NCBI GenBank assembly: GCA_032718475.1
Contig: JAUCBJ010001154.1
Location: forward strand, 1-64,000
Direction: 5' to 3'
Source of the DNA: Nemertoderma westbladi
Taxonomy: Eukaryota; Animalia; Xenacoelomorpha
Length of the DNA: 64,000 bases
Positions 1-64,000 of the stretch are shown piece by piece. Under the pieces are notes generated by a model that was not told the DNA's origin, made no database searches, and saw only the letters and a list, made by a program, of their open reading frames with translations. Both the position numbers and the translations under genes were made by a program. The number at the start of each line of letters is the position of its first letter. Within the stretch, counting starts at the first letter, position 1.

Positions 1-3000
1 AGTTCTACACTAGCTACTCTAATGCAACAAGGTGAGTCTGGTAAAGTTCAACACTAACTACTCTAATGCAACAAGGTGAGTCTGGTAAAGTTCAACCCTA
101 GCTACTCTAATGCAACAAGGTGAGTCTGGTAAAGTTCTACACTAGCTACTCTAATGCAACAAGGTGAGTCTGGTAAAGTTCTACCCTAGCTACTCTAATG
201 CAACAAGGTGAGTCTGATAAAGTTCTACACTAGCTACTCTAATGCAACAAGGTAAGTCTGGTAAAGTTCTACACTAGCTACTCTAATGCAACAAGGTGAG
301 TCTGGTAAAGTTCAACCCTAGCTACTCTAATGCAACAAGGTGAGTCTGGTAAAGTTCAACACTAGCTACTCTAATGCAACAAGGTGAGTCTGGTAAAGTT
401 CAACCCTAGCTACTCTAATGCAACAAGGTGAGTCTGATAAAGTTCTACACTAGCTACTCTAATGCAACAAGGTAAGTTTGGTAAAGTTCTACACTAGCTA
501 CTCTAATGCAACAAGGTGAGTCTGGTAAAGTTCAACCCTAGCTACTCTAATGCAACAAGGTGAGTCTGATAAAGTTCTACACTAGCTACTCTAATGCAAC
601 AAGGTAAGTTTGGTGAAGTTCAACCCTAGCTACTCTAATGCAACAAGGTGAGTCTGGTAAAGTTCAACACTAGCTACTCTAATGCAACAAGGTGAGTCTG
701 ATAAAGTTCTACACTAGCTACTCTAATGCAACAAGGTAAGTTTGGTAAAGTTCAACCCTAGCTACTCTAATGCAACAAGGTGAGTGTGGTAAAGTTCTAC
801 ACTAGCTACTCTAATGCAACAAGGTGAGTCTGATAAAGTTCTACACTAGCTACTCTAATGCAACAAGGTGAGTCTGGTAAAGTTCTACACTAGCTACTCT
901 AATGCAACAAGGTAAGTTTGGTAAAGTTCTACACTAGCTACTCTAATGCAACAAGGTGAGTCTGGTAAAGTTCGACCCTAGCTACTCTAATGCAACAAGG
1001 TGAGTCTGGTAAAGTTCAACCCTAGCTACTCTAATGCAACAAGGTGAGTCTGGTAAAGTTCTACACTAGCTACTCTAATGCAACAAGGTAAGTTTGGTAA
1101 AGTTCTACACTAGCTACTCTAATGCAACAAAGTGAGTCTGATAAAGTTCTACACTAGCTACTCTAATGCAACAAGGTAAGTCTGGTAAAGTTCTACACTA
1201 GCTACTCTAATGCAACAAGGTGAGTCTGATAAAGTTATACAATAGCTACTCTAATGCAACAAGGTGAGTCTGGTAAAGTTCTACACTAGCTACTCTAATG
1301 CAACAAGGTAAGTTTGGTAAAGTTCTACACTAGCTACTTTAATGCAACAAGGTGAGTCTGATAAAGTTCTACACTAGCTACTCTAATGCAACAAGGTGAG
1401 TCTGATAAAGTTCTACACTAGCTACTCTAATGCAACAAGGTGAGTCTGATAAAGTTATACAATAGCTACTCTAATGCAACAAGGTGAGTCTGGTAAAGTT
1501 CTACACTAGCTACTCTAATGCAACAAGGTAAGTTTGGTAAAGTTCTACACTAGCTACTCTAATGCAACAAGGTGAGTCTGATAAAGTTCAACACTAACTA
1601 CTCTAATGCAACAAGGTAAGTCTGGTAAAGTTCAACACTAGCTACTCTAATGCAACAAGGTAAGTTTGGTAAAGTTCTACACTAGCTACTCTAATGCAAC
1701 AAGGTAAGTCTGATAAAGTTATACAATAGCTACTCTAATGCAACAAGGTGAGTCTGGTAAAGTTCTACACTAGCTACTCTAATGCAACAAGGTAAGTTTG
1801 GTAAAGTTCTACACTAGCTACTCTAATGCAACAAGGTGAGTCTGATAAAGTTCAACACTAACTACTCTAATGCAACAAGGTGAGTCTGGTAAAGTTCAAC
1901 ACTAGCTACTCTAATGCAACAAGGTGAGTCTGGTAAAGTTCAACACTAGCTACTCTAATGCAACAAGGTGAGTCTGGTAAAGTTCAACCCTAGCTACTCT
2001 AATGCAACAAGGTGAGTCTGATAAAGTTCTACACTAGCTACTCTAATGCAACAAGGTAAGTCTGGTAAAGTTCTACACTAGCTACTCTAATGCAACAAGG
2101 TGAGTCTGGTAAAGTTCAACCCTAGCTACTCTAATGCAACAAGGTGAGTCTGATAAAGTTCTACACTAGCTACTCTAATGCAACAAGGTAAGTCTGGTGA
2201 AGTTCAACCCTAGCTACTCTAATGCAACAAGGTGAGTCTGGTAAAGTTCTACACTAGCTACTCTAATGCAACAAGGTAAGTTTGGTAAAGTTCTACACTA
2301 GCTACTCTAATGCAACAAGGTGAGTCTGATAAAGTTCTACACTAGCTACTCTAATGCAACAAGGTAAGTTTGGTGAAGTTCAACCCTAGCTACTCTAATG
2401 CAACAAGGTGAGTCTGATAAAGTTCTACACTAGCTACTCTAATGCAACAAGGTGAGTCTGGTAAAGTTCAACACTAGCTACTCTAATGCAACAAGGTGAG
2501 TCTGATAAAGTTCTACACTAGCTACTCTAATGCAACAAGGTAAGTCTGGTAAAGTTCAACCCTAGCTACTCTAATGCAACAAGGTGAGTGTGGTAAAGTT
2601 CTACACTAGCTACTCTAATGCAACAAGGTGAGTCTGATAAAGTTCTACACTAGCTACTCTAATGCAACAAGGTGAGTCTGGTAAAGTTCTACACTAGCTA
2701 CTCTAATGCAACAAGGTGAGTCTGATAAAGTTCAACACTAGCTACTCTAATGCAACAAGGTGAGTCTGGTAAAGTTCAACACTAGCTACTCTAATGCAAC
2801 AAGGTGAGTCTGGTAAAGTTCAACCCTAGCTACTCTAATGCAACAAGGTGAGTCTGATAAAGTTCTACACTAGCTACTCTAATGCAACAAGGTAAGTTTG
2901 GTGAAGTTCAACCCTAGCTACTCTAATGCAACAAGGTGAGTCTGGTAAAGTTCTACACTAGCTACTCTAATGCAACAAGGTAAGTTTGGTAAAGTTCTAC

Positions 3001-6000
3001 ACTAGCTACTCTAATGCAACAAGGTGAGTCTGATAAAGTTCTACACTAGCTACTCTAATGCAACAAGGTAAGTTTGGTGAAGTTCAACCCTAGCTACTCT
3101 AATGCAACAAGGTGAGTCTGATAAAGTTCTACACTAGCTACTCTAATGCAACAAGGTGAGTCTGGTAAAGTTCAACACTAGCTACTCTAATGCAACAAGG
3201 TGAGTCTGATAAAGTTCTACACTAGCTACTCTAATGCAACAAGGTAAGTTTGGTAAAGTTCAACCCTAGCTACTCTAATGCAACAAGGTGAGTGTGGTAA
3301 AGTTCTACACTAGCTACTCTAATGCAACAAGGTGAGTCTGATAAAGTTCTACACTAGCTACTCTAATGCAACAAGGTGAGTCTGGTAAAGTTCTACACTA
3401 GCTACTCTAATGCAACAAGGTGAGTCTGATAAAGTTCAACACTAACTACTCTAATGCAACAAGGTGAGTCTGGTAAAGTTCAACCCTAGCTACTCTAATG
3501 CAACAAGGTGAGTCTGGTAAAGTTCTACACTAGCTACTCTAATGCAACAAGGTGAGTCTGGTAAAGTTCAACCCTAGCTACTCTAATGCAACAAGGTGAG
3601 TCTGATAAAGTTCTACACTAGCTACTCTAATGCAACAAGGTAAGTTTGGTAAAGTTCTACACTAACTACTCTAATGCAACAAGGTGAGTCTGGTAAAGTT
3701 CAACCCTAGCTACTCTAATGCAACAAGGTGAGTCTGGTAAAGTTCAACACTAGCTACTCTAATGCAACAAGGTGAGTCTGGTAAAGTTCAACCCTAGCTA
3801 CTCTAATGCAACAAGGTGAGTCTGATAAAGTTCTACACTAGCTACTCTAATGCAACAAGGTAAGTTTGGTAAAGTTCTACACTAGCTACTCTAATGCAAC
3901 AAGGTGAGTCTGGTAAAGTTCAACCCTAGCTACTCTAATGCAACAAGGTGAGTCTGATAAAGTTCTACACTAGCTACTCTAATGCAACAAGGTAAGTTTG
4001 GTGAAGTTCAACCCTAGCTACTCTAATGCAACAAGGTGAGTCTGGTAAAGTTCAACACTAGCTACTCTAATGCAACAAGGTGAGTCTGATAAAGTTCTAC
4101 ACTAGCTACTCTAATGCAACAAGGTAAGTTTGGTAAAGTTCAACCCTAGCTACTCTAATGCAACAAGGTGAGTGTGGTAAAGTTCTACACTAGCTACTCT
4201 AATGCAACAAGGTGAGTCTGATAAAGTTCTACACTAGCTACTCTAATGCAACAAGGTGAGTCTGGTAAAGTTCTACACTAGCTACTCTAATGCAACAAGG
4301 TAAGTTTGGTAAAGTTCTACACTAGCTACTCTAATGCAACAAGGTGAGTCTGGTAAAGTTCGACCCTAGCTACTCTAATGCAACAAGGTGAGTCTGGTAA
4401 AGTTCAACCCTAGCTACTCTAATGCAACAAGGTGAGTCTGGTAAAGTTCTACACTAGCTACTCTAATGCAACAAGGTAAGTTTGGTAAAGTTCTACACTA
4501 GCTACTCTAATGCAACAAAGTGAGTCTGATAAAGTTCTACACTAGCTACTCTAATGCAACAAGGTAAGTCTGGTAAAGTTCTACACTAGCTACTCTAATG
4601 CAACAAGGTGAGTCTGATAAAGTTATACAATAGCTACTCTAATGCAACAAGGTGAGTCTGGTAAAGTTCTACACTAGCTACTCTAATGCAACAAGGTAAG
4701 TTTGGTAAAGTTCTACACTAGCTACTTTAATGCAACAAGGTGAGTCTGATAAAGTTCTACACTAGCTACTCTAATGCAACAAGGTGAGTCTGATAAAGTT
4801 CTACACTAGCTACTCTAATGCAACAAGGTGAGTCTGATAAAGTTATACAATAGCTACTCTAATGCAACAAGGTGAGTCTGGTAAAGTTCTACACTAGCTA
4901 CTCTAATGCAACAAGGTAAGTTTGGTAAAGTTCTACACTAGCTACTCTAATGCAACAAGGTGAGTCTGATAAAGTTCAACACTAACTACTCTAATGCAAC
5001 AAGGTAAGTCTGGTAAAGTTCAACACTAGCTACTCTAATGCAACAAGGTAAGTTTGGTAAAGTTCTACACTAGCTACTCTAATGCAACAAGGTAAGTCTG
5101 ATAAAGTTATACAATAGCTACTCTAATGCAACAAGGTGAGTCTGGTAAAGTTCTACACTAGCTACTCTAATGCAACAAGGTAAGTTTGGTAAAGTTCTAC
5201 ACTAGCTACTCTAATGCAACAAGGTGAGTCTGATAAAGTTCAACACTAACTACTCTAATGCAACAAGGTAAGTTTGGTAAAGTTCTACACTAGCTACTCT
5301 AATGCAACAAGGTGAGTCTGATAAAGTTCAACACTAACTACTCTAATGCAACAAGGTAAGTCTGGTAAAGTTCAACCCTAGCTACTCTAATGCAACAAGG
5401 TGAGTCTGGTAAAGTTCTACACTAGCTACTCTAATGCAACAAGGTAAGTCTGATAAAGTTATACAATAGCTACTCTAATGCAACAAGGTGAGTCTGGTAA
5501 AGTTCAACACTAGCTACTCTAATGCAACAAGGTAAGTCTGGTAAAGTTCTACACTAGCTACTCTAATGCAACAAGGTGAGTCTGATAAAGTTATACAATA
5601 GCTACTCTAATGCAACAAGGTGAGTCTGGTAAAGTTCTACACTAGCTACTCTAATGCAACAAGGTAAGTTTGGTAAAGTTCTACACTAGCTACTTTAATG
5701 CAACAAGGTGAGTCTGATAAAGTTCTACACTAGCTACTCTAATGCAACAAGGTGAGTCTGATAAAGTTCTACACTAGCTACTCTAATGCAACAAGGTGAG
5801 TCTGATAAAGTTATACAATAGCTACTCTAATGCAACAAGGTGAGTCTGGTAAAGTTCTACACTAGCTACTCTAATGCAACAAGGTAAGTTTGGTAAAGTT
5901 CTACACTAGCTACTCTAATGCAACAAGGTGAGTCTGATAAAGTTCAACACTAACTACTCTAATGCAACAAGGTAAGTCTGGTAAAGTTCAACACTAGCTA

Positions 6001-9000
6001 CTCTAATGCAACAAGGTAAGTTTGGTAAAGTTCTACACTAGCTACTTTAATGCAACAAGGTGATTCTGATAAAGTTCTACACTAGCTACTCTAATGCAAC
6101 AAGGTGAGTCTGATAAAGTTCTACACTAGCTACTCTAATGCAACAAGGTGAGTCTGATAAAGTTATACAATAGCTACTCTAATGCAACAAGGTGAGTCTG
6201 GTAAAGTTCTACACTAGCTACTCTAATGCAACAAGGTGAGTCTGATAAAGTTCAACACTAACTACTCTAATGCAACAAGGTAAGTCTGGTAAAGTTCTAC
6301 ACTAGCTACTCTAATGCAACAAGGTAAGTTTGGTAAAGTTCTACACTAACTACTCTAATGCAACAAGGTGAGTCTGGTAAAGTTCAACCCTAGCTACTCT
6401 AATGCAACAAGGTGAGTCTGATAAAGTTCTACACTAGCTACTCTAATGCAACAAGGTGAGTCTGATAAAGTTCTACACTAGCTACTCTAATGCAACAAGG
6501 TGAGTCTGATAAAGTTCAACACTAACTACTCTAATGCAACAAGGTGAGTCTGGTAAAGTTCAACCCTAGCTACTCTAATGCAACAAGGTGAGTCTGATAA
6601 AGTTCTACACTAGCTACTGTAATGCAACAAGGTGAGTCTGATAAAGTTCTACACTAGCTACTCTAATGCAACAAGGTGAGTCTGATAAAGTTCTACACTA
6701 GCTACTCTAATGCAACAAGGTGAGTCTGATAAAGTTCAACCCTAGCTACTCTAATGCAACAAGGTGAGTCTGGTAAAGTTCTACACTAGCTACTCTAATG
6801 CAACAAGGTGAGTCTGGTAAAGTTCAACGCTAGCTACTCTAATGCAACAAGGTGAGTCTGATAAAGTTCTACACTAGCTACTCTAATGCAACAAGGTGAG
6901 TCTGATAAAGTTCAACACTAACTACTCTAATGCAACAAGGTGAGTCTGGTAAAGTTCAACCCTAGCTACTCTAATGCAACAAGGTGAGTCTGGTAAAGTT
7001 CTACACTAGCTACTCTAATGCAACAAGGTGAGTCTGGTAAAGTTCAACCCTAGCTACTCTAATGCAACAAGGTGAGTCTGATAAAGTTCTACACTAGCTA
7101 CTCTAATGCAACAAGGTAAGTTTGGTAAAGTTCTACACTAACTACTCTAATGCAACAAGGTGAGTCTGGTAAAGTTCAACCCTAGCTACTCTAATGCAAC
7201 AAGGTGAGTCTGGTAAAGTTCAACACTAGCTACTCTAATGCAACAAGGTGAGTCTGGTAAAGTTCAACCCTAGCTACTCTAATGCAACAAGGTGAGTCTG
7301 ATAAAGTTCTACACTAGCTACTCTAATGCAACAAGGTAAGTTTGGTAAAGTTCTACACTAGCTACTCTAATGCAACAAGGTGAGTCTGGTAAAGTTCAAC
7401 CCTAGCTACTCTAATGCAACAAGGTGAGTCTGATAAAGTTCTACACTAGCTACTCTAATGCAACAAGGTAAGTTTGGTGAAGTTCAACCCTAGCTACTCT
7501 AATGCAACAAGGTAAGTTTGGTGAAGTTCAACCCTAGCTACTCTAATGCAACAAGGTGAGTCTGATAAAGTTCTACACTAGCTACTCTAATGCAACAAGG
7601 TGAGTCTGGTAAAGTTCAACACTAGCTACTCTAATGCAACAAGGTGAGTCTGATAAAGTTCTACACTAGCTACTCTAATGCAACAAGGTAAGTTTGGTAA
7701 AGTTCAACCCTAGCTACTCTAATGCAACAAGGTGAGTGTGGTAAAGTTCTACACTAGCTACTCTAATGCAACAAGGTGAGTCTGATAAAGTTCTACACTA
7801 GCTACTCTAATGCAACAAGGTGAGTCTGGTAAAGTTCTACACTAGCTACTCTAATGCAACAAGGTGAGTCTGATAAAGTTCAACACTAACTACTCTAATG
7901 CAACAAGGTGAGTCTGGTAAAGTTCAACCCTAGCTACTCTAATGCAACAAGGTGAGTCTGGTAAAGTTCTACACTAGCTACTCTAATGCAACAAGGTGAG
8001 TCTGGTAAAGTTCAACCCTAGCTACTCTAATGCAACAAGGTGAGTCTGATAAAGTTCTACACTAGCTACTCTAATGCAACAAGGTAAGTTTGGTAAAGTT
8101 CTACACTAACTACTCTAATGCAACAAGGTGAGTCTGGTAAAGTTCAACCCTAGCTACTCTAATGCAACAAGGTGAGTCTGGTAAAGTTCAACACTAGCTA
8201 CTCTAATGCAACAAGGTGAGTCTGGTAAAGTTCAACCCTAGCTACTCTAATGCAACAAGGTGAGTCTGATAAAGTTCTACACTAGCTACTCTAATGCAAC
8301 AAGGTAAGTTTGGTAAAGTTCTACACTAGCTACTCTAATGCAACAAGGTGAGTCTGGTAAAGTTCAACCCTAGCTACTCTAATGCAACAAGGTGAGTCTG
8401 ATAAAGTTCTACACTAGCTACTCTAATGCAACAAGGTAAGTTTGGTGAAGTTCAACCCTAGCTACTCTAATGCAACAAGGTGAGTCTGGTAAAGTTCAAC
8501 ACTAGCTACTCTAATGCAACAAGGTGAGTCTGATAAAGTTCTACACTAGCTACTCTAATGCAACAAGGTAAGTTTGGTAAAGTTCAACCCTAGCTACTCT
8601 AATGCAACAAGGTGAGTGTGGTAAAGTTCTACACTAGCTACTCTAATGCAACAAGGTGAGTCTGATAAAGTTCTACACTAGCTACTCTAATGCAACAAGG
8701 TGAGTCTGGTAAAGTTCTACACTAGCTACTCTAATGCAACAAGGTAAGTTTGGTAAAGTTCTACACTAGCTACTCTAATGCAACAAGGTGAGTCTGGTAA
8801 AGTTCAACCCTAGCTACTCTAATGCAACAAGGTGAGTCTGGTAAAGTTCAACCCTAGCTACTCTAATGCAACAAGGTGAGTCTGGTAAAGTTCTACACTA
8901 GCTACTCTAATGCAACAAGGTAAGTTTGGTAAAGTTCTACACTAGCTACTCTAATGCAACAAAGTGAGTCTGATAAAGTTCTACACTAGCTACTCTAATG

Positions 9001-12000
9001 CAACAAGGTAAGTCTGGTAAAGTTCTACACTAGCTACTCTAATGCAACAAGGTGAGTCTGATAAAGTTATACAATAGCTACTCTAATGCAACAAGGTGAG
9101 TCTGGTAAAGTTCTACACTAGCTACTCTAATGCAACAAGGTAAGTTTGGTAAAGTTCTACACTAGCTACTTTAATGCAACAAGGTGAGTCTGATAAAGTT
9201 CTACACTAGCTACTCTAATGCAACAAGGTGAGTCTGATAAAGTTCTACACTAGCTACTCTAATGCAACAAGGTGAGTCTGATAAAGTTATACAATAGCTA
9301 CTCTAATGCAACAAGGTGAGTCTGGTAAAGTTCTACACTAGCTACTCTAATGCAACAAGGTAAGTTTGGTAAAGTTCTACACTAGCTACTCTAATGCAAC
9401 AAGGTGAGTCTGATAAAGTTCAACACTAACTACTCTAATGCAACAAGGTAAGTCTGGTAAAGTTCAACACTAGCTACTCTAATGCAACAAGGTAAGTTTG
9501 GTAAAGTTCTACACTAGCTACTCTAATGCAACAAGGTAAGTCTGATAAAGTTATACAATAGCTACTCTAATGCAACAAGGTGAGTCTGGTAAAGTTCTAC
9601 ACTAGCTACTCTAATGCAACAAGGTAAGTTTGGTAAAGTTCTACACTAGCTACTCTAATGCAACAAGGTGAGTCTGATAAAGTTCAACACTAACTACTCT
9701 AATGCAACAAGGTAAGTTTGGTAAAGTTCTACACTAGCTACTCTAATGCAACAAGGTGAGTCTGATAAAGTTCAACACTAACTACTCTAATGCAACAAGG
9801 TAAGTCTGGTAAAGTTCAACCCTAGCTACTCTAATGCAACAAGGTGAGTCTGGTAAAGTTCTACACTAGCTACTCTAATGCAACAAGGTAAGTCTGATAA
9901 AGTTATACAATAGCTACTCTAATGCAACAAGGTGAGTCTGGTAAAGTTCAACACTAGCTACTCTAATGCAACAAGGTAAGTCTGGTAAAGTTCTACACTA
10001 GCTACTCTAATGCAACAAGGTGAGTCTGATAAAGTTATACAATAGCTACTCTAATGCAACAAGGTGAGTCTGGTAAAGTTCTACACTAGCTACTCTAATG
10101 CAACAAGGTAAGTTTGGTAAAGTTCTACACTAGCTACTTTAATGCAACAAGGTGAGTCTGATAAAGTTCTACACTAGCTACTCTAATGCAACAAGGTGAG
10201 TCTGATAAAGTTCTACACTAGCTACTCTAATGCAACAAGGTGAGTCTGATAAAGTTATACAATAGCTACTCTAATGCAACAAGGTGAGTCTGGTAAAGTT
10301 CTACACTAGCTACTCTAATGCAACAAGGTAAGTTTGGTAAAGTTCTACACTAGCTACTCTAATGCAACAAGGTGAGTCTGATAAAGTTCAACACTAACTA
10401 CTCTAATGCAACAAGGTAAGTCTGGTAAAGTTCAACACTAGCTACTCTAATGCAACAAGGTAAGTTTGGTAAAGTTCTACACTAGCTACTTTAATGCAAC
10501 AAGGTGATTCTGATAAAGTTCTACACTAGCTACTCTAATGCAACAAGGTGAGTCTGATAAAGTTCTACACTAGCTACTCTAATGCAACAAGGTGAGTCTG
10601 ATAAAGTTATACAATAGCTACTCTAATGCAACAAGGTGAGTCTGGTAAAGTTCTACACTAGCTACTCTAATGCAACAAGGTGAGTCTGATAAAGTTCAAC
10701 ACTAACTACTCTAATGCAACAAGGTAAGTCTGGTAAAGTTCTACACTAGCTACTCTAATGCAACAAGGTAAGTTTGGTAAAGTTCTACACTAGCTACTCT
10801 AATGCAACAAGGTGAGTCTGATAAAGTTCAACACTAACTACTCTAATGCAACAAGGTAAGTCTGGTAAAGTTCTACACTAGCTACTCTAATGCAACAAGG
10901 TAAGTTTGGTAAAGTTCTACACTAGCTACTTTAATGCAACAAGGTGAGTCTGATAAAGTTCTACACTAGCTACTCTAATGCAACAAGGTGAGTCTGATAA
11001 AGTTCTACACTAGCTACTCTAATGCAACAAGGTAAGTTTGGTAAAGTTCTACACTAGCTACTTTAATGCAACAAGGTGAGTCTGATAAAGTTCTACACTA
11101 ACTACTCTAATGCAACAAGGTAAGTCTGGTAAAGTTCTACACTAGCTACTGTAATGCAACAAGGTGAGTCTGATAAAGTTCTACACTAGCTACTCTAATG
11201 CAACAAGGTAAGTTTGGTAAAGTTCTACACTAGCTACTTTAATGCAACAAGGTGAGTCTGATAAAGTTCTACACTAGCTACTCTAATGCAACAAGGTGAG
11301 TCTGATAAAGTTCTACACTAGCTACTGTAATGCAACAAGGTGAGTCTGATAAAGTTCTACACTAGTTACTCTAATGCAACAAGGTAAGTTTGGTAAAGTT
11401 CTACACTAGCTACTTTAATGCAACAAGGTGAGTCTGATAAAGTTCTACACTAGCTACTCTAATGCAACAAGGTGAGTCTGATAAAGTTCTACACTAGCTA
11501 CTCTAATGCAACAAGGTGAGTCTGATAAAGTTCTACACTAGCTACTCTAATGCAACAAGGTAAGTTTGGTAAAGTTCTACACTAGCTACTTTAATGCAAC
11601 AAGGTGAGTCTGATAAAGTTCTACACTAGCTACTCTAATGCAACAAGGTGAGTCTGATAAAGTTCTACACTAGCTACTCTAATGCAACAAGGTAAGTTTG
11701 GTAAAGTTCTACACTAGCTACTTTAATGCAACAAGGTGAGTCTGATAAAGTTCTACACTAACTACTCTAATGCAACAAGGTAAGTCTGGTAAAGTTCTAC
11801 ACTAGCTACTGTAATGCAACAAGGTGAGTCTGATAAAGTTCTACACTAGCTACTCTAATGCAACAAGGTAAGTTTGGTAAAGTTCTACACTAGCTACTTT
11901 AATGCAACAAGGTGAGTCTGATAAAGTTCTACACTAGCTACTCTAATGCAACAAGGTGAGTCTGATAAAGTTCTACACTAGCTACTGTAATGCAACAAGG

Positions 12001-15000
12001 TGAGTCTGATAAAGTTCTACACTAGTTACTCTAATGCAACAAGGTAAGTTTGGTAAAGTTCTACACTAGCTACTTTAATGCAACAAGGTGAGTCTGATAA
12101 AGTTCTACACTAGCTACTCTAATGCAACAAGGTGAGTCTGATAAAGTTCTACACTAGCTACTGTAATGCAACAAGGTGAGTCTGATAAAGTTCTACACTA
12201 GCTACTCTAATGCAACAAGGTAAGTTTGGTAAAGTTCTACACTAGCTACTTTAATGCAACAAGGTGAGTCTGATAAAGTTCTACACTAGCTACTCTAATG
12301 CAACAAGGTGAGTCTGATAAAGTTCTACACTAGCTACTCTAATGCAACAAGGTGAGTCTGATAAAGTTATACAATAGCTACTCTAATGCAACAAGGTAAG
12401 TTTGGTAAAGTTCTACACTAGCTACTTTAATGCAACAAGGTGAGTCTGATAAAGTTCTACACTAGCTACTCTAATGCAACAAGGTGAGTCTGATAAAGTT
12501 CTACACTAGCTACTCTAATGCAACAAGGTGAGTCTGATAAAGTTATACAATAGCTACTCTAATGCAACAAGGTGAGTCTGGTAAAGTTCTACACTAGCTA
12601 CTCTAATGCAACAAGGTGAGTCTGATAAAGTTCAACACTAACTACTCTAATGCAACAAGGTAAGTCTGGTAAAGTTCTACACTAGCTACTCTAATGCAAC
12701 AAGGTAAGTTTGGTAAAGTTCTACACTAGCTACTCTAATGCAACAAGGTGAGTCTGATAAAGTTCAACACTAACTACTCTAATGCAACAAGGTAAGTCTG
12801 GTAAAGTTCTACACTAGCTACTCTAATGCAACAAGGTAAGTTTGGTAAAGTTCTACACTAGCTACTTTAATGCAACAAGGTGAGTCTGATAAAGTTCTAC
12901 ACTAGCTACTCTAATGCAACAAGGTGAGTCTGATAAAGTTCTACACTAGCTACTCTAATGCAACAAGGTAAGTTTGGTAAAGTTCTACACTAGCTACTTT
13001 AATGCAACAAGGTGAGTCTGATAAAGTTCTACACTAACTACTCTAATGCAACAAGGTAAGTCTGGTAAAGTTCTACACTAGCTACTGTAATGCAACAAGG
13101 TGAGTCTGATAAAGTTCTACACTAGCTACTCTAATGCAACAAGGTAAGTTTGGTAAAGTTCTACACTAGCTACTTTAATGCAACAAGGTGAGTCTGATAA
13201 AGTTCTACACTAGCTACTCTAATGCAACAAGGTGAGTCTGATAAAGTTCTACACTAGCTACTGTAATGCAACAAGGTGAGTCTGATAAAGTTCTACACTA
13301 GCTACTCTAATGCAACAAGGTAAGTTTGGTAAAGTTCTACACTAGCTACTCTAATGCAACAAGGTGAGTCTGGTAAAGTTCTACACTAGCTACTCTAATG
13401 CAACAAGGTGAGTCTGATAAAGTTCAACACTAACTACTCTAATGCAACAAGGTAAGTCTGGTAAAGTTCAACACTAGCTACTCTAATGCAACAAGGTAAG
13501 TTTGGTAAAGTTCTACACTAGCTACTTTAATGCAACAAGGTGAGTCTGATAAAGTTCTACACTAGCTACTCTAATGCAACAAGGTGAGTCTGATAAAGTT
13601 ATACACTAGCTACTCTAATGCAACAAGGTGAGTCTGGTAAAGTTCAACACTAGCTACTCTAAAGCAACAAGGTAAGTTTGGTAAAGTTCTACACTAGCTA
13701 CTTTAATGCAACAAGGTGAGTCTGATAAAGTTCTACACTAGCTACTCTAATGCAACAAGGTGAGTCTGATAAAGTTCTACACTAGCTACTCTAATGCAAC
13801 AAGGTAAGTTTGGTAAAGTTCTACACTAGCTACTTTAATGCAACAAGGTGAGTCTGATAAAGTTCTACACTAGCTACTCTAATGCAACAAGGTGAGTCTG
13901 ATAAAGTTCTACACTAGCTACTCTAATGCAACAAAGTGAGTCTGATAAAGTTCTATACTAGCTACTCTAATGCAACAAGGTGAGTCTGATAAAGTTATAC
14001 AATAGCTACTCTAATGCAACAAGGTGAGTCTGGTAAAGTTCTACACTAGCTACTTTAATGCAACAAGGTGAGTCTGATAAAGTTCTACACTAGCTACTCT
14101 AATGCAACAAGGTGAGTCTGATAAAGTTCAACACTAACTACTCTAATGCAACAAGGTAAGTCTGGTATAAAGTTCTACACTAGCTACTCTAATGCAACAA
14201 GGTAAGTTTGGTAAAGTTCTACACTAGCTACTTTAATGCAACAAGGTGAGTCTGATAAAGTTCTACACTAGCTACTCTAATGCAACAAGGTGAGTCTGAT
14301 AAAGTTATACAATAGCTACTCTAATGCAACAAGGTAAGTTTGGTAAAGTTCTACACTAGCTACTTTAATGCAACAAGGTGAGTCTGATAAAGTTCTACAC
14401 TAGCTACTCTAATGCAACAAGGTGAGTCTGATAAAGTTCTACACTAGCTACTCTAATGCAACAAGGTGAGTCTGGTAAAGTTCAACACTAGCTACTCTAA
14501 TGCAACAAGGTAAGTTTGGTAAAGTTCTACACTAGCTACTTTAATGCAACAAGGTGAGTCTGGTAAAGTTCAACACTAGCTACTCTAATGCAACAAGGTA
14601 AGTTTGGTAAAGTTCTACACTAGCTACTTTAATGCAACAAGGTGAGTCTGATAAAGTTCAACACTAACTACTCTAATGCAACAAGGTAAGTCTGGTATAA
14701 AGTTCTACACTAGCTACTCTAATGCAACAAGGTAAGTTTGGTAAAGTTCTACACTAGCTACTTTAATGCAACAAGGTGAGTCTGATAAAGTTCTACACTA
14801 GCTACTCTAATGCAACAAGGTAAGTTTGGTAAAGTTCTACACTAGCTACTTTAATGCAACAAGGTGAGTCTGATAAAGTTCTACACTAGCTACTCTAATG
14901 CAACAAGGTAAGTTTGGTAAAGTTCTACACTAGCTACTCTAATGCAACAAGGTGAGTCTGATAAAGTTCAACACTAACTACTCTAATGCAACAAGGTAAG

Positions 15001-17845
15001 TCTGGTATAAAGTTCTACACTAGCTACTCTAATGCAACAAGGTAAGTTTGGTAAAGTTCTACACTAGCTACTTTAATGCAACAAGGTGAGTCTGATAAAG
15101 TTCTACACTAGCTACTCTAATGCAACAAGGTGAGTCTGATAAAGTTCTACACTAGCTACTCTAATGCAACAAGGTGAGTCTGATAAAGTTCTATACTAGC
15201 TACTCTAATGCAACAAGGTGAGTCTGATAAAGTTATACAATAGCTACTCTAATGCAACAAGGTGAGTCTGGTAAAGTTCTACACTAGCTACTCTAATGCA
15301 ACAAGGTGAGTCTGATAAAGTTCAACACTAACTACTCTAATGCAACAAGGTGAGTCTGATAAAGTTCAACACTAACTACTCTAATGCAACAAGGTAAGTC
15401 TGGTTTAAAGTTCTACACTAGCTACTCTAATGCAACAAGGTAAGTTTGGTAAAGTTCTACACTAGCTACTTTAATGCAACAAGGTGAGTCTGATAAAGTT
15501 CTACACTAGCTACTCTAATGCAACAAGGTAAGTTTGGTAAAGTTCTACACTAGCTACTTTAATGCAACAAGGTGAGTCTGATAAAGTTCTACACTAGCTA
15601 CTCTAATGCAACAAGGTAAGTTTGGTAAAGTTCTACACTAGCTACTCTAATGCAACAAGGTGAGTCTGATAAAGTTCAACACTAACTACTCTAATGCAAC
15701 AAGGTAAGTCTGGTATAAAGTTCTACACTAGCTACTCTAATGCAACAAGGTAAGTTTGGTAAAGTTCTACACTAGCTACTTTAATGCAACAAGGTGAGTC
15801 TGATAAAGTTCTACACTAGCTACTCTAATGCAACAAGGTGAGTCTGATAAAGTTCTACACTAGCTACTCTAATGCAACAAGGTGAGTCTGATAAAGTTCT
15901 ATACTAGCTACTCTAATGCAACAAGGTGAGTCTGATAAAGTTATACAATAGCTACTCTAATGCAACAAGGTGAGTCTGGTAAAGTTCTACACTAGCTACT
16001 CTAATGCAACAAGGTGAGTCTGATAAAGTTCAACACTAACTACTCTAATGCAACAAGGTAAGTCTGGTATAAAGTTCTACACTAGCTACTCTAATGCAAC
16101 AAGGTAAGTTTGGTAAAGTTCTACACTAGCTACTCTAATGCAACAAGGTGAGTCTGATAAAGTTCAACACTAACTACTCTAATGCAACAAGGTAAGTCTG
16201 GTAAAGTTCTACACTAGCTACTCTAATGCAACAAGGTAAGTTTGGTAAAGTTCTACACTAGCTACTCTAATGCAACAAGGTAAGTTTGATAAAGTTCTAC
16301 ACTAGCTACTTTAATGCAACAAGGTGAGTCTGATAAAGTTCTACACTAGCTACTCTAATGCAACAAGGTGAGTCTGATAAAGTTCTACACTAGCTACTCT
16401 AATGCAACAAGGTAAGTTTGATAAAGTTCTACACTAGCTACTTTAATGCAACAAGGTGAGTCTGATAAAGTTCTACACTAGCTACTCTAATGCAACAAGG
16501 TGAGTCTGATAAAGTTCTACACTAGCTACTCTAATGCAACAAGGTAAGTTTGGTAAAGTTCTACACTAGCTACTTTAATGCAACAAGGTGAGTCTGATAA
16601 AGTTCTACACTAACTACTCTAATGCAACAAGGTAAGTCTGGTAAAGTTCTACACTAGCTACTGTAATGCAACAAGGTGAGTCTGATAAAGTTCTACACTA
16701 GCTACTCTAATGCAACAAGGTAAGTTTGATAAAGTTCTACACTAGCTACTTTAATGCAACAAGGTGAGTCTGATAAAGTTCTACACTAGCTACTCTAATG
16801 CAACAAGGTGAGTCTGATAAAGTTCTACACTAGCTACTCTAATGCAACAAGGTAAGTTTGGTAAAGTTCTACACTAGCTACTTTAATGCAACAAGGTGAG
16901 TCTGATAAAGTTCTACACTAACTACTCTAATGCAACAAGGTAAGTCTGGTAAAGTTCTACACTAGCTACTGTAATGCAACAAGGTGAGTCTGATAAAGTT
17001 CTACACTAGCTACTCTAATGCAACAAGGTGAGTCTGATAAAGTTCTACACTAGCTACTCTAATGCAACAAGGTGAGTCTGATAAAGTTCTACACTAGCTA
17101 CTCTAATGCAACAAGGTAAGTTTGGTAAAGTTCTACACTAGCTACTTTAATGCAACAAGGTGAGTCTGATAAAGTTCTACACTAGCTACTCTAATGCAAC
17201 AAGGTGAGTCTGATAAAGTTCTACACTAGCTACTGTAATGCAACAAGGTGAGTCTGATAAAGTTCTACACTAGCTACTCTAATGCAACAAGGTAAGTTTG
17301 GTAAAGTTCTACACTAGCTACTTTAATGCAACAAGGTGAGTCTGATAAAGTTCTACACTAGCTACTCTAATGCAACAAGGTGCGTCTGATAAAGTTCTAC
17401 ACTAGCTACTGTAATGCAACAAGGTGAGTCTGATAAAGTTCTACACTAGCTACTCTAATGCAACAAGGTAAGTTTGGTAAAGATCTACACTAGCTACTTT
17501 AATGCAACAAGGTGAGTCTGATAAAGTTCTACACTAGCTACTCTAATGCAACAAGGTGAGTCTGATAAAGTTCTACACTAGCTACTCTAATGCAACAAGG
17601 TGAGTCTGATAAAGTTATACAATAGCTACTCTAATGCAACAAGGTGAGTCTGGTAAAGTTCTACACTAGCTACTCTAATGCAACAAGGTAAGTTTGGTAA
17701 AGTTCTACACTAGCTACTTTAATGCAACAAGGTGAGTCTGATAAAGTTCAACACTAACTACTCTAATGCAACAAGGTAAGTCTGGTAAAGTTCAACACTA
17801 GCTACTCTAGTACAACAAGTACAGGGTGGTAAAGTGTAACACTAT
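1..17845 (+). repeat. 44-bp tandem satellite (~405 copies, begins upstream of the window); the unit is the 3' end of the iGluR M2 pore-loop exon plus its 5' splice site
   Basis: Consensus AGTTCTACACTAGCTACTCTAATGCAACAAG|GT(G/A)AGT(C/T)TG(G/A)TAA with period 44. ACA CTA GCT ACT CTA ATG CAA CAA G reads TLATLMQQG and is followed by GTGAGT or GTAAGT. The last unit is degenerate at ~17790-17845. Confidence 0.97.
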
Positions 17846-18988
17846 ATAGTTTCTTCGGGAGACACCAATACCGACACAAAAATAGTCCCAGTCGACAAAG
17901 TATGTTAATTAAGGAAGTTCCGAGACTTCCGCATATAATTACCGAGTTGTCTTATATCGAACACCCTGGAACTGGTGCATACGTTAGATTGACTGCAGCT
18001 CCGCCACTCTATTTAATTGCACTACTCAGTTACGGAACGGAGTTCGTGAAATGTACATCACTTGAAAAAACTTAATAGTTTCTACCTGACATTCCGTAAG
18101 GGCTGACCTCGTGTAGATTGCCGATAAATTGGCATTTTCTTCCACAGGCAATTTGACAACTGTATGTCAAACCGCGATTAACCGGGATATTCAAGGTGTT
18201 TATATTATCCCGGTTTGCCGCACCATGTCCTGGAATATAGTATCTTTATTTAGTTACCTGCCCTCCTCCCTTCTCTACCTCCTTTTCGATTTAATTTCAA
18301 TCTATAATGCACCACCGGTCTTGGTTGTTACCTGAAATGCTCGAAGGGCGCCATCCTAACTCCCAGGGTTGAACACTCACGAGCTATTAATTCCATATAA
18401 TACTACGTGACATTTTGTTTACTTTTTTATTTTTTACAAAATATATTATTATATTGGATAAGTTTATTACCTCTTATATATTGGATAAATATAATGACTG
18501 ATTATGTCGTATATTGTCGATCGATTTTTTATTATACTCGCCCACAAAATATCAAACCAGTTGTTATCATTGAATTACAATTGGGTAAAAATACAATATA
18601 AACATATAAATAGAAATAAGTTATGAGAACACAATACTAGATTTTATGTCACTATAATCACCTATACAACTGACTGACACAGTAAAATTTTACAACATGA
18701 ATACTGTCGATGAAAACTGAAAGTAATTATAATACGACTTACATTCAGTAAGAATTGTATGTAGTAGTTCACCAAGTGTCACATGCAAATTTAAATTAAT
18801 TTGGTAGAATGTTTGCAATTTATATGACTTTAAAGCTACGATGTTAAAGAAACAAGTTGTGATGTCACATAAATTGATGATGGATTGATACGATAAATTA
18901 TACTTTGATTTTTGACGGCCTGCACATTTTTGTAAGATACAAAATTTATATCCTGTGCTTTTGTATCTCGTAGACGTGATTATTAATA

Positions 18989-21358
18989 GCTTTGTGATAC
19001 TCCACCAGTGCGGGTGCTCTGAGTCGCTTTGTGATACTCCAACAGTGCGGCTGCTCTGAGTCGCTTTGCGACACTCCACCAGTGCGGGTGCTCTGAGTCG
19101 CTTTGTGATACTCCACCAGTGCGGGTGCTCTGAGTCGCTTTGTGATACTCCAACAGTGCGGGTGCTCTGAGTCGCTTTGTGATACTCCACCAGTGCGGGT
19201 GCTCTGAGTCGCTTTGTGACACTCCAACAGTGCGGCTGCTCTGAGTCGCTTTGTGACACTCCACCAGTGCGGTTGCTCTGAGTCGCTTTGTGATACTCCA
19301 CCAGTGCGGGTGCTCTGAGTCGCTTTGTGATACTCCACCAGTGCGGGTGCTCTGAGTCGCTTTGTGATACTCCACCAGTGTGGGTGCTCTGAGTCGCTTT
19401 GTGATACTCCACCAGTGCGGGTGCTCTGAGGCGCTTTGTGATACTCCACCAGTGAGGGTGCTCTGAGTCGCTTTGTGATACTCCACCAGTGCGGGTGCTC
19501 TGAGTCGCTTTGTGATACTCCACCAGTGCGGGTGCTCTGAGTCGCTTTGTGATACTCCAACAGTGCGATTGCTCTGAGTCGCTTTGTGATACTCTACCAG
19601 TGCGGGTGATCTGAGTCGCTTTGTGATACTCCAACAGTGCGGGTGCTCTGAGTCGCTTTGTGATACTCCACCAGTGCGGGTGCTCTGAGTCGCTTTGTGA
19701 TACTCCACCAGTGCGGGTGCTCTGAGTTGCTTTGTGATACGCCAACAGTGCGGGTGCTCTGAGTCGCTATATGATACTCCAACAGTGCGGGTGCTCTGAG
19801 TCGCTTTGTGATACTCCAACAGTGCGGGTGCTCTGAGTCGCTTTGTGATACTCCACCAGTGCGGGTGCTCTGAGTCGCTTTGTGATACTCCACCAGTGCG
19901 GGTGCTCTGAGTCGCTTTGTGATACTCCACCAGTGCGGGTGCTCTGAGTCGCTTTGTGATACTCCACCAGTGCGGGTGCTCTGAGTCGCTTTGTGATACT
20001 CCACCAGTGCGGGTGCTCTGAGTCGCCTTGTGATACTCCACCAGTGCGGGTGCTCTGAGTCGCTTTGTGATACTCCACCACTGCGGGTGCTCTGAGTCGC
20101 TTTGTGATACTCCACCAGTGCGGGTGCTCTGAGTCGCTTTGTGATACTCTATCAGTGCGGGTGCTCTGAGTCGCTTTGTGACACTCCAACAGTGCGGCTG
20201 CTCTGAGTCGCTTTGTGACACTCCACCAGTGCGGTTGCTCTGAGTCTCTTTGTGATACTCCACCAGTGCGGGTGCTCTGAGTCGCTTTGTGATACTCCAC
20301 CAGTGCGGGTGCTCTGAGTCGCTTTGTGATACTCCACCAGTGTGGGTGCTCTGAGTCGCTTTGTGATACTCCACCAGTGCGGGTGCTCTGAGGCGCTTTG
20401 TGATACTCCACCAGTGAGGGTGCTCTGAGTCGCTTTGTGATACTCCTCCAGTGCGGGTGCTCTGAGTCGCTTTGTGATACTCCACCAGTGCGGGTGCTCT
20501 GAGTCGCTTTGTGATACTCCAACAGTGCGGTTGCTCTGAGTCGCTTTGTGATACTCCACCAGTGCGGGTGATCTGAGTCGCTTTGTGATACTCCAACAGT
20601 GCGGGTGCTCTGAGTCGCTTTGTGATACTCCACCAGTGCGGGTGCTCTGAGTTGCTTTGTGATACTCCACCAGTGCGGGTGCTCTGAGTTGCTTTGTGAT
20701 ACGCCAACAGTGCGGGTGTTCTGAGTCGCTGTATGATACTCCAACAGTGCGGGTGCTCTGAGTCGCTTTGTGATACTCCAACAGTGCGGGTGCTCTGAGT
20801 CGCTTTGTGATACTCCACCAGTGCGGGTGCTCTGAGTCGCTTTGTGATACTCCACCAGTGCGGGTGCTCTGAGTGGCTTTGTGATACTCCACCAGTGCGG
20901 GTGCTCTGAGTCGCTTTGTGATACTCCACCAGTGCGGGTGCTCTGAGTCGCTTTGTGATACTCCACAAGTGCGGGTGCTCTGAGTCGCTTTGTGATACTC
21001 CACCAGTGCGGGTGCTCTGAGTCGCTTTGTGATACTCCACCACTGCGGGTGCTCTGAGTCGCTTTGTGATACTCCACCAGTGCGGGTGCTCTGAGTCGCT
21101 TTGTGATACTCTATCAGTGCGCGTGCTCTGAGTCGCTTTGTGATACTCCACCAGTGCGGGTGCTCTGAGTCGCTTTGTGATACTCCAACAGTGCGGGTGC
21201 TCTGAGTCGCTTTGTGATACTCCAACATTGCGGGTGCTCTGAGTCGCTTTGTGATACTCCACCAGTGCGGGTGCTCTGAGTCGCTTTGTGATACTCCACC
21301 AGTGCGGGTGCTCTGAGTCGCTTTGTGATACTCCACCAGTGAGGGTGCTCTGAGTCGC
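18989..21358. repeat. 37-bp GC-rich tandem minisatellite (~64 copies) with a 26-unit (962 bp) higher-order period, intronic
   Basis: Unit GCTTTGTGATACTCCACCAGTGCGGGTGCTCTGAGTC, with GAGTC at 19021 and 19058. The rare variant GAGGCG recurs at 19428 and 20390 (962 = 26x37). Confidence 0.97.
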
Positions 21359-22304
21359 GTTGTCATACAGTAAAATATGTTACTCAATCGGGACGGCAGA
21401 AAATATGCTGCTCTCTTCATCTTTATACTTTATGACGTTTGGGTCTTTGAGCGAAATTTAGTAAATTTATGAGCTATTTATGAATAAAAATTCATAGTGG
21501 ATGTTTGTATTAAATGTTTGTTTGTTATGTCATGTCATGTTATGTTTGTTTGTATTTTCATTTTTAAAGAGTTAAAATTATAAAATATATAAAGAGTCCT
21601 CCTCTGCGTCAACCTTTAAACGTGCACTATATTTATATGCACTGGACCACTCCAAAATGTTTCAATATCCTACCAAATTTATCCCATTATACTTGGGTCC
21701 TGTCTATCTATTTATTATTTTGTGTGGTACGGTAGAAACCTTAACCCATGGTGGTAAAATAAACGTCCTTATTTCAATATATAAAGAGTTAACTATACTT
21801 TGTTGCTTCTAAGCGTGCTGCGATACGTCGAAAATGGAAGAGGAATCTGGGGAATCGTTGCGATCTGAACAACACAAATTTGGATTTTCAAATAGTATAT
21901 GGTTCGCTCTTTCTGCGGCCTTGAGACAAAGTATGTTGAAAACTCTGCACAACCTTTATCTCTATGCCGCATAACTGCATATGGTAGAGTGGCTTTAGTT
22001 CTCAATCACAGATAATATTTGTTACTTATTGTATCAGCATGCAGATCCTTGCATTACTGTATGCGTGGCGGCAATGACCTCTTAGACCTACATGACCAAC
22101 TAACTGCACCACCAAATCTTACGCGTACACCCACTTCACACGCACATCAACCTTGTTTATTCATGTCTTTTAACCCGTATAATTCTGTAGAGACCCTAAA
22201 TGTAAGCACATGGGTGAAGTTGAGCATGTTGGTTTGGTTTCGTGTCGGTGTCTTATATATATCGGAATAATAATTTATCATATTTTTCCTGTTTAGTTTG
22301 TACC

Positions 22305-22672
22305 AAACTAGCTAACATACACAGTTATACATACATACATACACCCCGATGCTACCAGGTTTCACACCAGGCGATACAATACTCACTTGATAAACGAGGC
22401 ATTTTACAATCTCGGTAGTAACATCCTATTGCAAAACCCAGCACCACCCCGCGGGATCAACGTATAATAATTTCCGGCCACTGTCATCGTATAACTGACA
22501 AGCCTGTACGTGATCTTGTTGTATGTCAGCCGGCTGTAAATATAAAACATGGTGGTCAGCCACTGACGTCTGGTTAATATAGATTAATTCGGGATTTACA
22601 AGGCTGATCGCGAATTGTGGCGGTGGTGTTGCGTTGAGGCCTACCCGCGATTACATCCCATTCGTGTAGCCG

Positions 22673-22708
<36 letters not shown>

Positions 22709-22730
22709 CATTAACAGTAGTTCAGCTAGT
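22305..22730. repeat. Degenerate fold-back element bounded by inverted (TACA)n/(TGTA)n microsatellites, possible old MITE
   Basis: (TACA)n at ~22328-22343 faces (TGTA)n at ~22676-22707, with outer CTAGCT...AGCTAG. Inner imperfect inverted matches include CGCGGG..TCAACG vs CGTTGA..CCCGCG, and CCGGCCAC..AGCCTGTA vs TACAAGGCT..GTGGCGG. Confidence 0.45.
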
Positions 22731-24349: not shown

Positions 24350-24367
24350 GGGGGGGGGGGGGGGGGG
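24350..24367 (+). repeat. Poly-G homopolymer (18 G)
   Basis: Directly visible G run about 230 bp upstream of the exon acceptor at 24600. Confidence 0.9.
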
Positions 24368-24600
24368 TAATCTCTACTAATTAACAAAGTTGTAACAAAT
24401 TGAATTATTATCAATTGAAGGAAAGGAGCAGGTTTCAGTGTCATATTTCTAACCAAAATAAATATAAACGCGCGATTTCATTTGCGATGAATATTGATTG
24501 CGTCACGAAACCCCTGTACATATCTAAATTATTATCCCGCCGATATTGTATTTCCGTTCGTACAACGCATTATCGCATTTACATTACGTTTGTGTTTCAG

Positions 24601-25096: not shown

Positions 25097-25145
25097 GTAA
25101 GTTTCATATTTTATTGTGTATATTGTAAGCCTAATTTGGTAGGGA

Positions 25146-25230
25146 TTAGCACCATCCATTAGATGTGTTTACTAAGCGTTTACTAAGCACCATTAGTTTG
25201 TGTTTACTAAGCACCATTAGCTTGTGTTTA
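25146..25230. repeat. Short nascent tandem repeat (~24 bp, ~3 copies) near the intron start
   Basis: TAAGCACCATTAG(T/C)TTGTGTTTAC repeated imperfectly, about 50 bp downstream of the donor at 25097. Confidence 0.7.
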
Positions 25231-25344
25231 CCCAACATAATCAAAAGACAAATATCAAAAGACAAAAATCAAAAGCGAAATAAAACTCATTACAGATAAA
25301 TTAATATTTTTTCAGATGTTTTTTCTAGAAAGCGTATAATTATT

Positions 25345-61700: not shown

Positions 61701-64000
61701 CACAATCACTAGTACCCAGCAGTTAGTGACACAATCACAAGTACCAATCAGTTAGTGACACAATCACAAGCACCCATCAGTTAGTGACACAATTACACGT
61801 ACCCAATAGTTAGTGACACAATCACAAGTACCAACAGTTAGTGACACAATCACACGTACCCAACAGTTAGTGACACAATCACAAGTACCCAGCAGTTAGT
61901 GACACAATCACAAGTACCCAACAGTTAGTGACACAATCACAAGTACCCAGCAGTTAGTGACAAAATTAGAAGTACCAGCAGTTAGTGACACAATTACAAG
62001 TACCAGCAGTTAGTGACACAATCTACACACCCAGCAGTTAGTGACACAATCACACGTACCCAACAGTTAGTGACACAATCACACGTACCCAATAGTTAAT
62101 TACACAATCTACACACCCAGCAGTTAGTGACATAATCACAAGTACCCAACAGTTAATGACATAATCTACACACCCAGCAGTTAGTGACACAATTACAAGT
62201 ACCAGCAGTTAGTGACACAATCTACACACCCAGCAGTTAGTGACACAATCACACGTACCCAACAGTTAGTGACACAATCACACGTACCCAATAGTTAATG
62301 ACATAATCTACACACCCATCAGTTAGTGACACAATCACAAGTACCCAATAGTTAGTGACACAATTACACGTACCCAATAGTTAGTGACACAATCACAAGT
62401 ACCCAGCAGTTAGTGGCACAATTACACGTACCCAATAGTTAGTGACACAATCACAAGTACCAACAGTTAGTGACACAATCACACGTACCCAACAGTTAGT
62501 GACACAATCACAAGTACCCAGCAGTTAGTGGCACAATTACACGTACCCAATAGTTAGTGACACAATCACAAGTACCAACAGTTAGTGACACAATCACACG
62601 TACCCAACAGTTAGTGACACAATCACAAGTACCCAGCAGTTAGTGACACAATTACACGTACCCAATAGTTAGTGACACAATCACAAGTACCAACAGTTAG
62701 TGACACAATCACACGTACCCAATAGTTAGTGACACAATCACAAGTACCCAACAGTTAGTGACACAATCACAAGTACCCAGCAGTTAGTGACACAATTACA
62801 CGTACCCAATTGTTAGTGACACAATCACAAGTACCAACAGTTAGTGACACAATCACACGTACCCAACAGTTAGTGACACAATCACACGTACCCAATAGTT
62901 AATGACACAATCTACACACCCATCAGTTAGTGCCACAATCACAAGTACCCAGCAGTTAGTGACACAATTACACGTACCCAATAGTTAGTGACACAATCAC
63001 AAGTACCAACAGTTAGTGACACAATCACACGTACCCAACAGTTAGTGACACAATCACACGTACCCAACAGTTAATGACATAATCTACACACCCATCAGTT
63101 AGTGACACAATCACACGTACCCAATAGTTAGTGACACAATAACAAGTACCAACAGTTAGTGACACAATCACACGTACCCAACAGTTAATGACATAATCTA
63201 CACACCCATCAGTTAGTGACACAATCACACGTACCCAATAGTTAGTGACACAATAACAAGTACCAACAGTTAGTGATACAATCACACGTATCCAACAGTT
63301 AGTGACACAATCACACGTACCCAGCAGTTAGTGACACAATCACACGTACCAGCAGTTAGTGACACAATCACACGTACCCAACAGTTAATGACATAATCTA
63401 CACACCCATCAGTTAGTGACACAATCACAAGTACCCAACAGTTAATGACATAATCTACACACCCATCAGTTAGTGACACAATCACAAGTTCCAACAGTTA
63501 GTGACACAATCACACGTACCCAACAGTTAGTGACACAATCACACGTACGCAGCAGTTAGTGACACAATCACACGTACCAGCAGTTAGTGACACAATCACA
63601 CGTACCCAACAGTTAATGACATAATCTACACACCCATCAGTTAGTGACACAATCACACGTACCCAATAGTTAGTGACACAATCACAAGTACCAACAGTTA
63701 GTGACACAATCACACGTACCCAACAGTTAGTGACACAATCACACGTACCCAGCCGTTAGTGACACAATCACACGTACCAACAGTTAGTGACACAATCACA
63801 CGTACCCAGCAGTTAGTGACACAATCACACGTACCAGCAGTTAGTGACACAATCACACGTACCCAACAGTTAATGACATAATCTACACACCCATCAGTTA
63901 GTGACACAATCACACGTACCCAATAGTTAGTGACACAATCACAAGTACCAACAGTTAGTGACACAATCACACGTACCCAACAGTTAGTGACGCAATCACA
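28788..64000 (+). repeat. 28-29 bp tandem satellite (>35 kb, ~1200+ copies, runs off the window), starting at a donor-like GTTAGT
   Basis: Consensus GTTAGTGACACAATCACACGTACCCAACA with 28-bp variants (...AAGTACCAACA, ...CGTACCAGCA). Multi-kb higher-order duplications are visible from rare variants. Confidence 0.97.

Follow-up and report, generated by a model that had tools for sequence, protein, structure and literature searches.

We analysed a 64,000-nucleotide stretch of DNA from Nemertoderma westbladi (contig JAUCBJ010001154.1, positions 1 to 64,000; hereafter the window), which carries, on its plus strand, the 3' portion of a gene for an ionotropic glutamate receptor (iGluR). Two tandem arrays detected with Tandem Repeats Finder (TRF) occupy about 53 of the 64 kb, and five exons, designated A to E, are located between them. 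These and a third, much smaller array are probably splice-junction minisatellites, i.e. local duplications of exon edges (termed "mirages" in amphioxus) that were subsequently shaped by ordinary repeat turnover and tolerated through the use of the exon-proximal splice site. All three are head-to-tail minisatellites, with periods of 44, 23 and 29 bp. A preliminary description of this DNA had reported about 400, about 7 and more than 1200 copies, respectively, and these arrays indeed exist: TRF counted 404.7 copies of the 44-mer and 1225.6 of the 29-mer, while seven copies of the 23-mer carry a pyrimidine tract. The kind of element is already known; what is new is its size and the probable lineage of its host.

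The assignment of the gene to the iGluRs is based on a Lig_chan domain with the M3 motif, S2 and M4. Exon B (24601-25096; M3 and S2) matched Pfam Lig_chan (PF00060) with an E value of 2e-21, and among its 111 matches a "delta-1-like" receptor from the acoel Convolutriloba macropyga had the highest identity (58%). A tree built from exon B only comprised 29 rows, 27 of them exon B matches or representatives chosen to span the subfamilies, with the window gene added; in this tree the window gene and the C. macropyga protein were sisters (support 100/99), both on fairly long branches, and the window gene grouped with neither the AMPA nor the kainate rows. Judged from this one exon, the host would probably belong to the acoels or their relatives. 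Exon B is preceded by exon A (21814-21930; 117 nucleotides, phase 1-1), a second pore-loop exon recognised with an M2 profile, and followed by exon C (26345-26493; end of S2 and pre-M4 region, located by tblastn), exon D (28074-28167; M4) and exon E (28648-28787), which encodes a C-terminal tail and is not the last exon of the gene. All five lie on the plus strand, have GT-AG edges throughout and are in continuous phase.

The region 21400-28830 was compared with the sequencing runs X1, X2, X4 and X6, the last of which gave no alignments. X1 and X2 are genomic, whereas X4 was taken to be RNA on the grounds that several intron bins have zero cover and that its contigs make their joins at GT-AG edges. 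Contigs 17 and 18 of X4 match exon B, and contig 18 joins position 25096 to 26345, i.e. exon B to exon C. Contig 22 covers 28071-28167 and then 28648-28787, with 19 letters preceding and 77 following, and leaves exon E at exactly 28787. This path shows that exon E is real, that its first donor (GTG/GTTAGT; a slash marks the splice junction) is used, and that a further exon lies beyond the part of the array that was compared. The preliminary description had named the exon status of 28648-28787 as one of two points on which its proposal could fail, and this interval is confirmed as an exon by contig 22, which joins 28167 to 28648.

The array at the acceptor of exon D could be seen directly to span an exon boundary. 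Its unit of 23 bp is composed of the final ~12 bases of the intron and the first ~11 bases of the exon, so that in-register copies carry both the intron end and the start of a confirmed exon. TRF placed it at 27958-28084 (plus strand, 5.6 copies), with a displaced piece at 27567-27640; two displaced copies of the acceptor unit were delimited to 27590-27642. Among the seven copies with a pyrimidine tract, five have TTTTACAG/GT, one has AAAG and one ACGG. The acceptor used is that of the last copy (AG at 28072-28073): a join of exon C to 28074 predicts, given three letters in common, a contig start at 28071, which is where contig 22 starts. Splicing to the copy at 28029 would add 15 residues in frame, and splicing to the remaining near copies would shift the frame. 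The array is split by a multi-copy insert of about 300 bp (27643-27938) that is lacking from contigs of X1 and X2. Each of these two genomic runs yielded a contig of single-copy depth joining 27595 to 27967 over a 36-base identical direct repeat; this form is 371 bases shorter, leaves four clean acceptor copies and fits length instability. The insert has no clear terminal inverted repeats and no Rfam match. X4 depth reaches 14432 in the bin 27600-27847, and the ends of X4 contigs of 1680 and 690 letters correspond to parts of the insert.

The 44-mer array runs off the 5' end of the window, and its size is therefore a minimum. TRF delimited it to 1-17819 (93% matches), and unit tables to 1-17838 on the plus strand, with at least 404 copies. 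Each unit consists of 25 bases reading TLATLMQQ-G, followed by 19 bases that open with the donor GTRAGT. The array contains 401 GTRAGT sites; the donor variants are GTGAGT (270), GTAAGT (131) and GTGATT (2), a change of G to A at +3 being the commonest. The arrangement CAR CAR G/GT arose in just 116 of 200000 shuffled units. Matches of the M2 profile to the units are weak (E values of 0.08-0.4), the acoel homologue has WFTMTSIMQQGG at the corresponding M2 position, and QQG was the commonest motif at this position among the fetched proteins (140 of those matched by the pattern, out of 248 with an M3 motif). Contig 17 of X4 (518 letters) covers 24599-24888, and its remaining 228 letters could not be placed in 21400-28830. 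The end of the exon upstream of 24601 therefore has exactly two letters in common with that of the intron: a contig start at 24599, as seen, is predicted for an exon ending like the 44-mer, and a start at 24601 for exon A, the identity of the upstream exon resting on this two-letter overlap. Coding content, donor and RNA overlap thus all fit a boundary-spanning unit. Judging from the repeat and this overlap, a glutamine-type M2 exon very likely lies upstream of the window, its end having seeded the array, and the 44-mer likely belongs among the mirages. The terminal unit (17795-17838) differs from the others in having 10 of 44 bases mismatched, as opposed to at most 5 elsewhere; the mismatches are mostly clustered on the donor, which has been lost. 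This decayed unit is followed by ACACTA (together 17795-17844, plus strand), the same six bases with which the exon-derived part begins, and a candidate microhomology behind the first duplication. On the minus strand of 1-17819, unit variants produce 39 GT[AGT]AGT and 43 AATAAA/ATTAAA sites.

The 29-mer array opens at base +1 of the intron following exon E and extends to the 3' end of the window (28788-64000, plus strand; 89% matches), beyond which it continues, so that its 35213 bases and 1211 units of 28/29 bp are again minimum values. The hexamer GTTAGT opens 1144 of the 1211 units and has been lost from 67, such variants recurring along the array; by comparison, a donor hexamer is present in 0.3% of shuffled units. 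The copies read ACA/GTTAGT, ATA/GTTAGT or GCA/GTTAGT, which is near the working donor of exon D (CGA/GTTAGT), and a crude count of matches to U1 gave 5 for the copies, 6 for exon E and 7 for exon D. The non-consensus donor GTTAGT is found at two successive introns of the gene (after 28167 and 28787), both supported by X4 contig 22. Two candidate sources of the unit were rejected. The likeness of its tail to the end of exon E was equalled at 1804 of 15624 control positions (11.5%) and in 260 of 3000 shuffles, while comparison with the donor region of exon D gave no score above those of shuffled units. There was no significant match to the 29-mer elsewhere in the unique region of the window. The earlier statement that the three repeats coincide with exon-intron junctions thus applies directly to the 23-mer; it holds for the position of the 29-mer and not for its exon content, and for the 44-mer it is inferred from the unit and the RNA overlap. 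The anatomy of the units also supports the proposal, made in the same description, that junction-seeded arrays have inflated the introns of this gene with decoy splice sites.

We propose that each array would have arisen from a short duplication, with a microhomology (ACACTA in the case of the 44-mer) as its probable site, copying an exon end with its donor, or an acceptor with the exon start; the exon would thereby have remained intact and a spare copy would have been placed in the intron. Slippage and unequal exchange may then have amplified and homogenised the unit, a scheme consistent with the decayed edge unit of the 44-mer array and with multi-kb repetition within both large arrays. Near-exact blocks of at least 700 nucleotides at long offsets make up 59% and 60% of these arrays, the longest being of 3.3 kb at an offset of 4444 and of 4.0 kb at an offset of 4709, and they fit recent block duplication. 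Splicing would have continued at the exon-proximal site, with the copies remaining silent, as the one likely RNA run shows for the 23-mer and the 29-mer and, indirectly, for the 44-mer. In that run, contigs 17, 18 and 22 show that splicing at the authentic sites is kept. Splicing at a later donor would do harm, because read-through from exon E immediately reaches a stop and a length of 44 is not divisible by three; as long as the exon-proximal site keeps winning, the copies cost little, and the arrays are probably by-products rather than a regulatory device. If the first donor wins, donor-side arrays could grow huge, whereas acceptor copies placed upstream would compete with the authentic site and stay few, a pattern matching the observed sizes (18 and 35 kb on the donor side and 0.2 kb on the acceptor side).

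Such tolerance would remove exon-disrupting duplications, yet it could not alone enrich arrays at junctions over plain intron. A possible addition to the explanation given above, which we hold with little confidence and which is the stronger form of what the preliminary description proposed, is a mutational process that in this lineage specifically duplicates splice junctions (for example through breaks or R-loops at exon edges, or reinsertion of small circles) and acts as a genome-wide engine of intron growth. A random array collapsed to a single unit touches one of the 11 splice sites with a probability of 0.04-0.06. With all arrays treated in this way, the chance that at least three of the four large arrays lie at junctions is 0.0003-0.0009, and that at least three of the nine TRF arrays do so (two TRF rows of the 23-mer having been merged) is 0.005-0.016. 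Moreover, tandem arrays account for 82% of what is visible of the interval between the M2 donor and exon B and for the entire visible intron after exon E. These P values overstate the case, since the window was picked for its junction pattern from a very large scan and one junction of the three is inferred, and the local excess is suggestive without proving a lineage-wide bias. A counter-example is present in the same gene, namely a 37-bp array of 64 copies (18989-21368; TRF), which lies at no identified junction, 445 bases away from the closest exon identified, and has no GT[AGT]AGT on either strand. Plain intron can thus expand too, and the suggestion of the preliminary description that selection tolerates only those expansions that regenerate a splice site was too strong. 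The 37-mer is GC-rich, and its unit gives rise, as a by-product, to long stop-free frames on the minus strand.

The absence of a significant likeness between the 29-mer tail and the end of exon E, or of any such match in the unique region, would also be expected if a pre-existing satellite had landed at or just after exon E and supplied or replaced its donor, leaving only two junction-born arrays. We regard this as rather unlikely, in view of the array opening exactly at intron base +1, the rarity of the donor hexamer in shuffled units and the native use of GTTAGT by exon D; furthermore, the unit in human F7 contains just 4 exon bases (PMC1557585; here and below, statements on cited papers refer to the portions of their text that were available). 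The donor copies might instead be functional, either by loading U1 small nuclear ribonucleoprotein (snRNP) along a giant intron, for cleavage protection or stepwise splicing, or by steering the choice between glutamine and arginine exons. U1 is known to protect long introns. The commonest donor change in the 44-mer preserves the consensus, the sense strand of both large arrays lacks AATAAA/ATTAAA, and the 44-mer array separates exon A from the inferred glutamine exon. Counts of conserved donor positions have no power here and were not used as evidence, as the copies share ancestry and are not independent, and the recurrent variants among the 67 hexamer-less units of the 29-mer, together with the lack of any RNA sign of decoy use in X4, make a functional role improbable. 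Its recursive-splicing form was rejected, there being no match to a pyrimidine tract plus YAG, and thus no ratchet point, in either large array; the 23-mer copies do carry YAG/GT, but with the weak donor GTGTAT. It is still less probable that the giant sizes are mostly an assembly artefact and the true arrays far shorter. Such an artefact would be expected to leave exact internal repeats like those seen, of 1986 and 3551 bases; against this, there are dozens of unit variants with gradients along both arrays, and the summed contig depth at 28809 is 3529 in X1 and 604 in X2, compared with 12-19 for single-copy contigs. This depth is not a copy number, and it supports many copies while indicating neither how many nor where.

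Several points weigh against junction-born arrays kept silent by exon-proximal splicing. The source exon of the 44-mer and the far ends of both large arrays are outside the window, and the 29-mer, which adjoins a junction and repeats its donor hexamer, has no significant exon part, so that it may not be a true mirage even though it works like a donor mirage. X4 is recorded as "DNA?" with no library entry, and rare use of decoys may have escaped its contigs, which drop minor variants. The near-exact blocks could partly reflect over-expansion in the assembly, and the join of 27595 to 27967 represents either an allele of lesser length or a shortcut of the assembler across the 36-base repeat. The contrast between large donor-side and small acceptor-side arrays comes from three arrays only. 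Finally, in the human genes 6-16 and CBS one or two extra donors of such repeats are in fact used (PMC1557585), which was not seen here, although the X4 contigs could miss minor use.

The preliminary description had suggested that such arrays, including the presence of three in one gene, might be novel. This does not hold, since comparable repeats have been reported from amphioxus and humans. The amphioxus mirages are boundary-spanning tandem repeats at both kinds of boundary that differ in length between haplotypes, permit normal splicing and are of an origin called unclear (PMC3087553). They occur in Adh3, the globin genes BflGb6 and BflGb9, troponin C and PGBD5 (PMC3087553, PMC3902484), and lancelet PGBD5 contains two of them (PMC3902484). 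The arrays described here resemble them in having copies of a 3' boundary and likely of a 5' boundary, several arrays per gene, short units, regular splicing and an edge unit that escapes homogenisation, and possibly also in length differences. They differ in scale, as the copy numbers in amphioxus are 2-7, with units of 10-72 bp in Adh3 (PMC3087553, PMC3902484), compared with at least 404 and 1211 copies in the present gene, whose introns thereby reach 24.6 and 35.2 kb or more; in addition, the host is not a cephalochordate and the 29-mer has no detectable exon part. Donor-spanning repeats are also known from the human genes F7 (IVS7; 37 bp, 5-9 sites), CBS (IVS13; 15-20), 6-16 (25), lamin B2 (10-15) and PDGF (16-18) (PMC1557585). 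In these minisatellites, too, the first unit spans or adjoins the donor and later copies are pseudo-sites, and the restriction of splicing to the most upstream donor, demonstrated experimentally for F7, matches what was observed for exon E; the human cases, as far as the available text describes them, have far fewer copies, one array per gene, and arrays on the donor side only (PMC1557585). A literature search that did not extend to most subscription papers revealed no mirages in acoels, no mirages of several tens of kb and no genome-wide tests of arrays at junctions. The apparently correct choice of one donor, with over 1,100 similar copies following it across 35 kb, provides a natural stress test of first-donor selection, far exceeding the 5-25 copies of the human cases (PMC1557585). 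A genome with arrays of this size would also permit tests of enrichment at junctions and of the asymmetry between donor-side and acceptor-side sizes.

For channel biologists the second pore-loop exon may matter more than the arrays, as it could allow a Q/R switch by splicing in a glutamate receptor that is probably from a xenacoelomorph. Exon A ends in NSIWFALSAALRQ/S (WFALSAALRQ/S) and encodes arginine (AGA) at the Q/R (Q1) position, in contrast to the glutamine of the exon represented in the 44-mer. Its match to the M2 profile (E value of 1.2e-5) was the best among 700 peptides from outside the arrays, while Pfam Lig_chan gave just 0.056; it retains NSIWF and is open over 38 codons, as were 1418 of 20000 shuffles. 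Only one of eight codons is shared with the exon part of the 44-mer, which indicates that exon A is an old duplicate, apparently kept by selection. Both exons end in phase 1 onto exon B, the glutamine exon being known through the repeat and the RNA overlap. The chances that the two are mutually exclusive seem about even. X4 reveals a transcript form lacking exon A and none that carries it, and its depth is 0 over 21896-22143; the acceptor of exon A is a weak AAG, and the exon is skipped in this one likely RNA run.

Protein records gave no further trace of exon A. Isoforms X1 and X2 of Convolutriloba have the same M2 (MQQG), and an alternative pore exon was not seen in these two records. None of five candidate proteins matched an exon A query, which is weak evidence. 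We found no protein record spanning M2 of the window gene, as a search for proteins of near length gave three matches at 38-47%, and the best single-stretch identity among the representative proteins was 53%, none being from the window gene. One text file of the PMC10861852 supplement contained none of the motifs searched for, and the literature search mentioned above detected no published mutually exclusive pore exons of iGluRs; paired pore exons of kainate receptors were not mentioned in the available text of one Drosophila preprint. Linear, calcium-insensitive currents have been described for an AMPA receptor of an acoel, Hof-98014323, whose arginine at the adjacent position Q2 is DNA-encoded (PMC13520880). 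In this receptor, as in exon A, the pore arginine is encoded in the DNA rather than generated by RNA editing as in the Q/R editing of vertebrate GluA2; it is located at Q2 in a separate paralogue, whereas exon A has it at Q1, in a second copy of the pore exon inside a single gene. According to the available text of that paper, alternative splicing was left for future examination in the species studied (PMC13520880). A broader proposal, which we put forward as speculation and consider doubtful, is that in acoels splicing-invisible donor mirages are a genome-wide route to giant introns filled with decoy donors, acceptor copies being held small, and that the length of a 400-donor array placed between mutually exclusive Q/R pore exons could tune, through splicing and not RNA editing, how permeable the receptor is to calcium.

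Other features of the introns are of minor importance. Introns of up to 193,733 bp have been reported in Symsagittifera (PMC10565955, in the part available), so that long introns per se are not unusual among acoelomorphs. Rfam gave no matches across 17700-28900. The intron stretches 24345-24600 and 26860-27330 contain very high-copy elements, with summed depths of up to 225,000 in X2, which are probably non-autonomous transposons; one of these elements stops near the acceptor of exon B.

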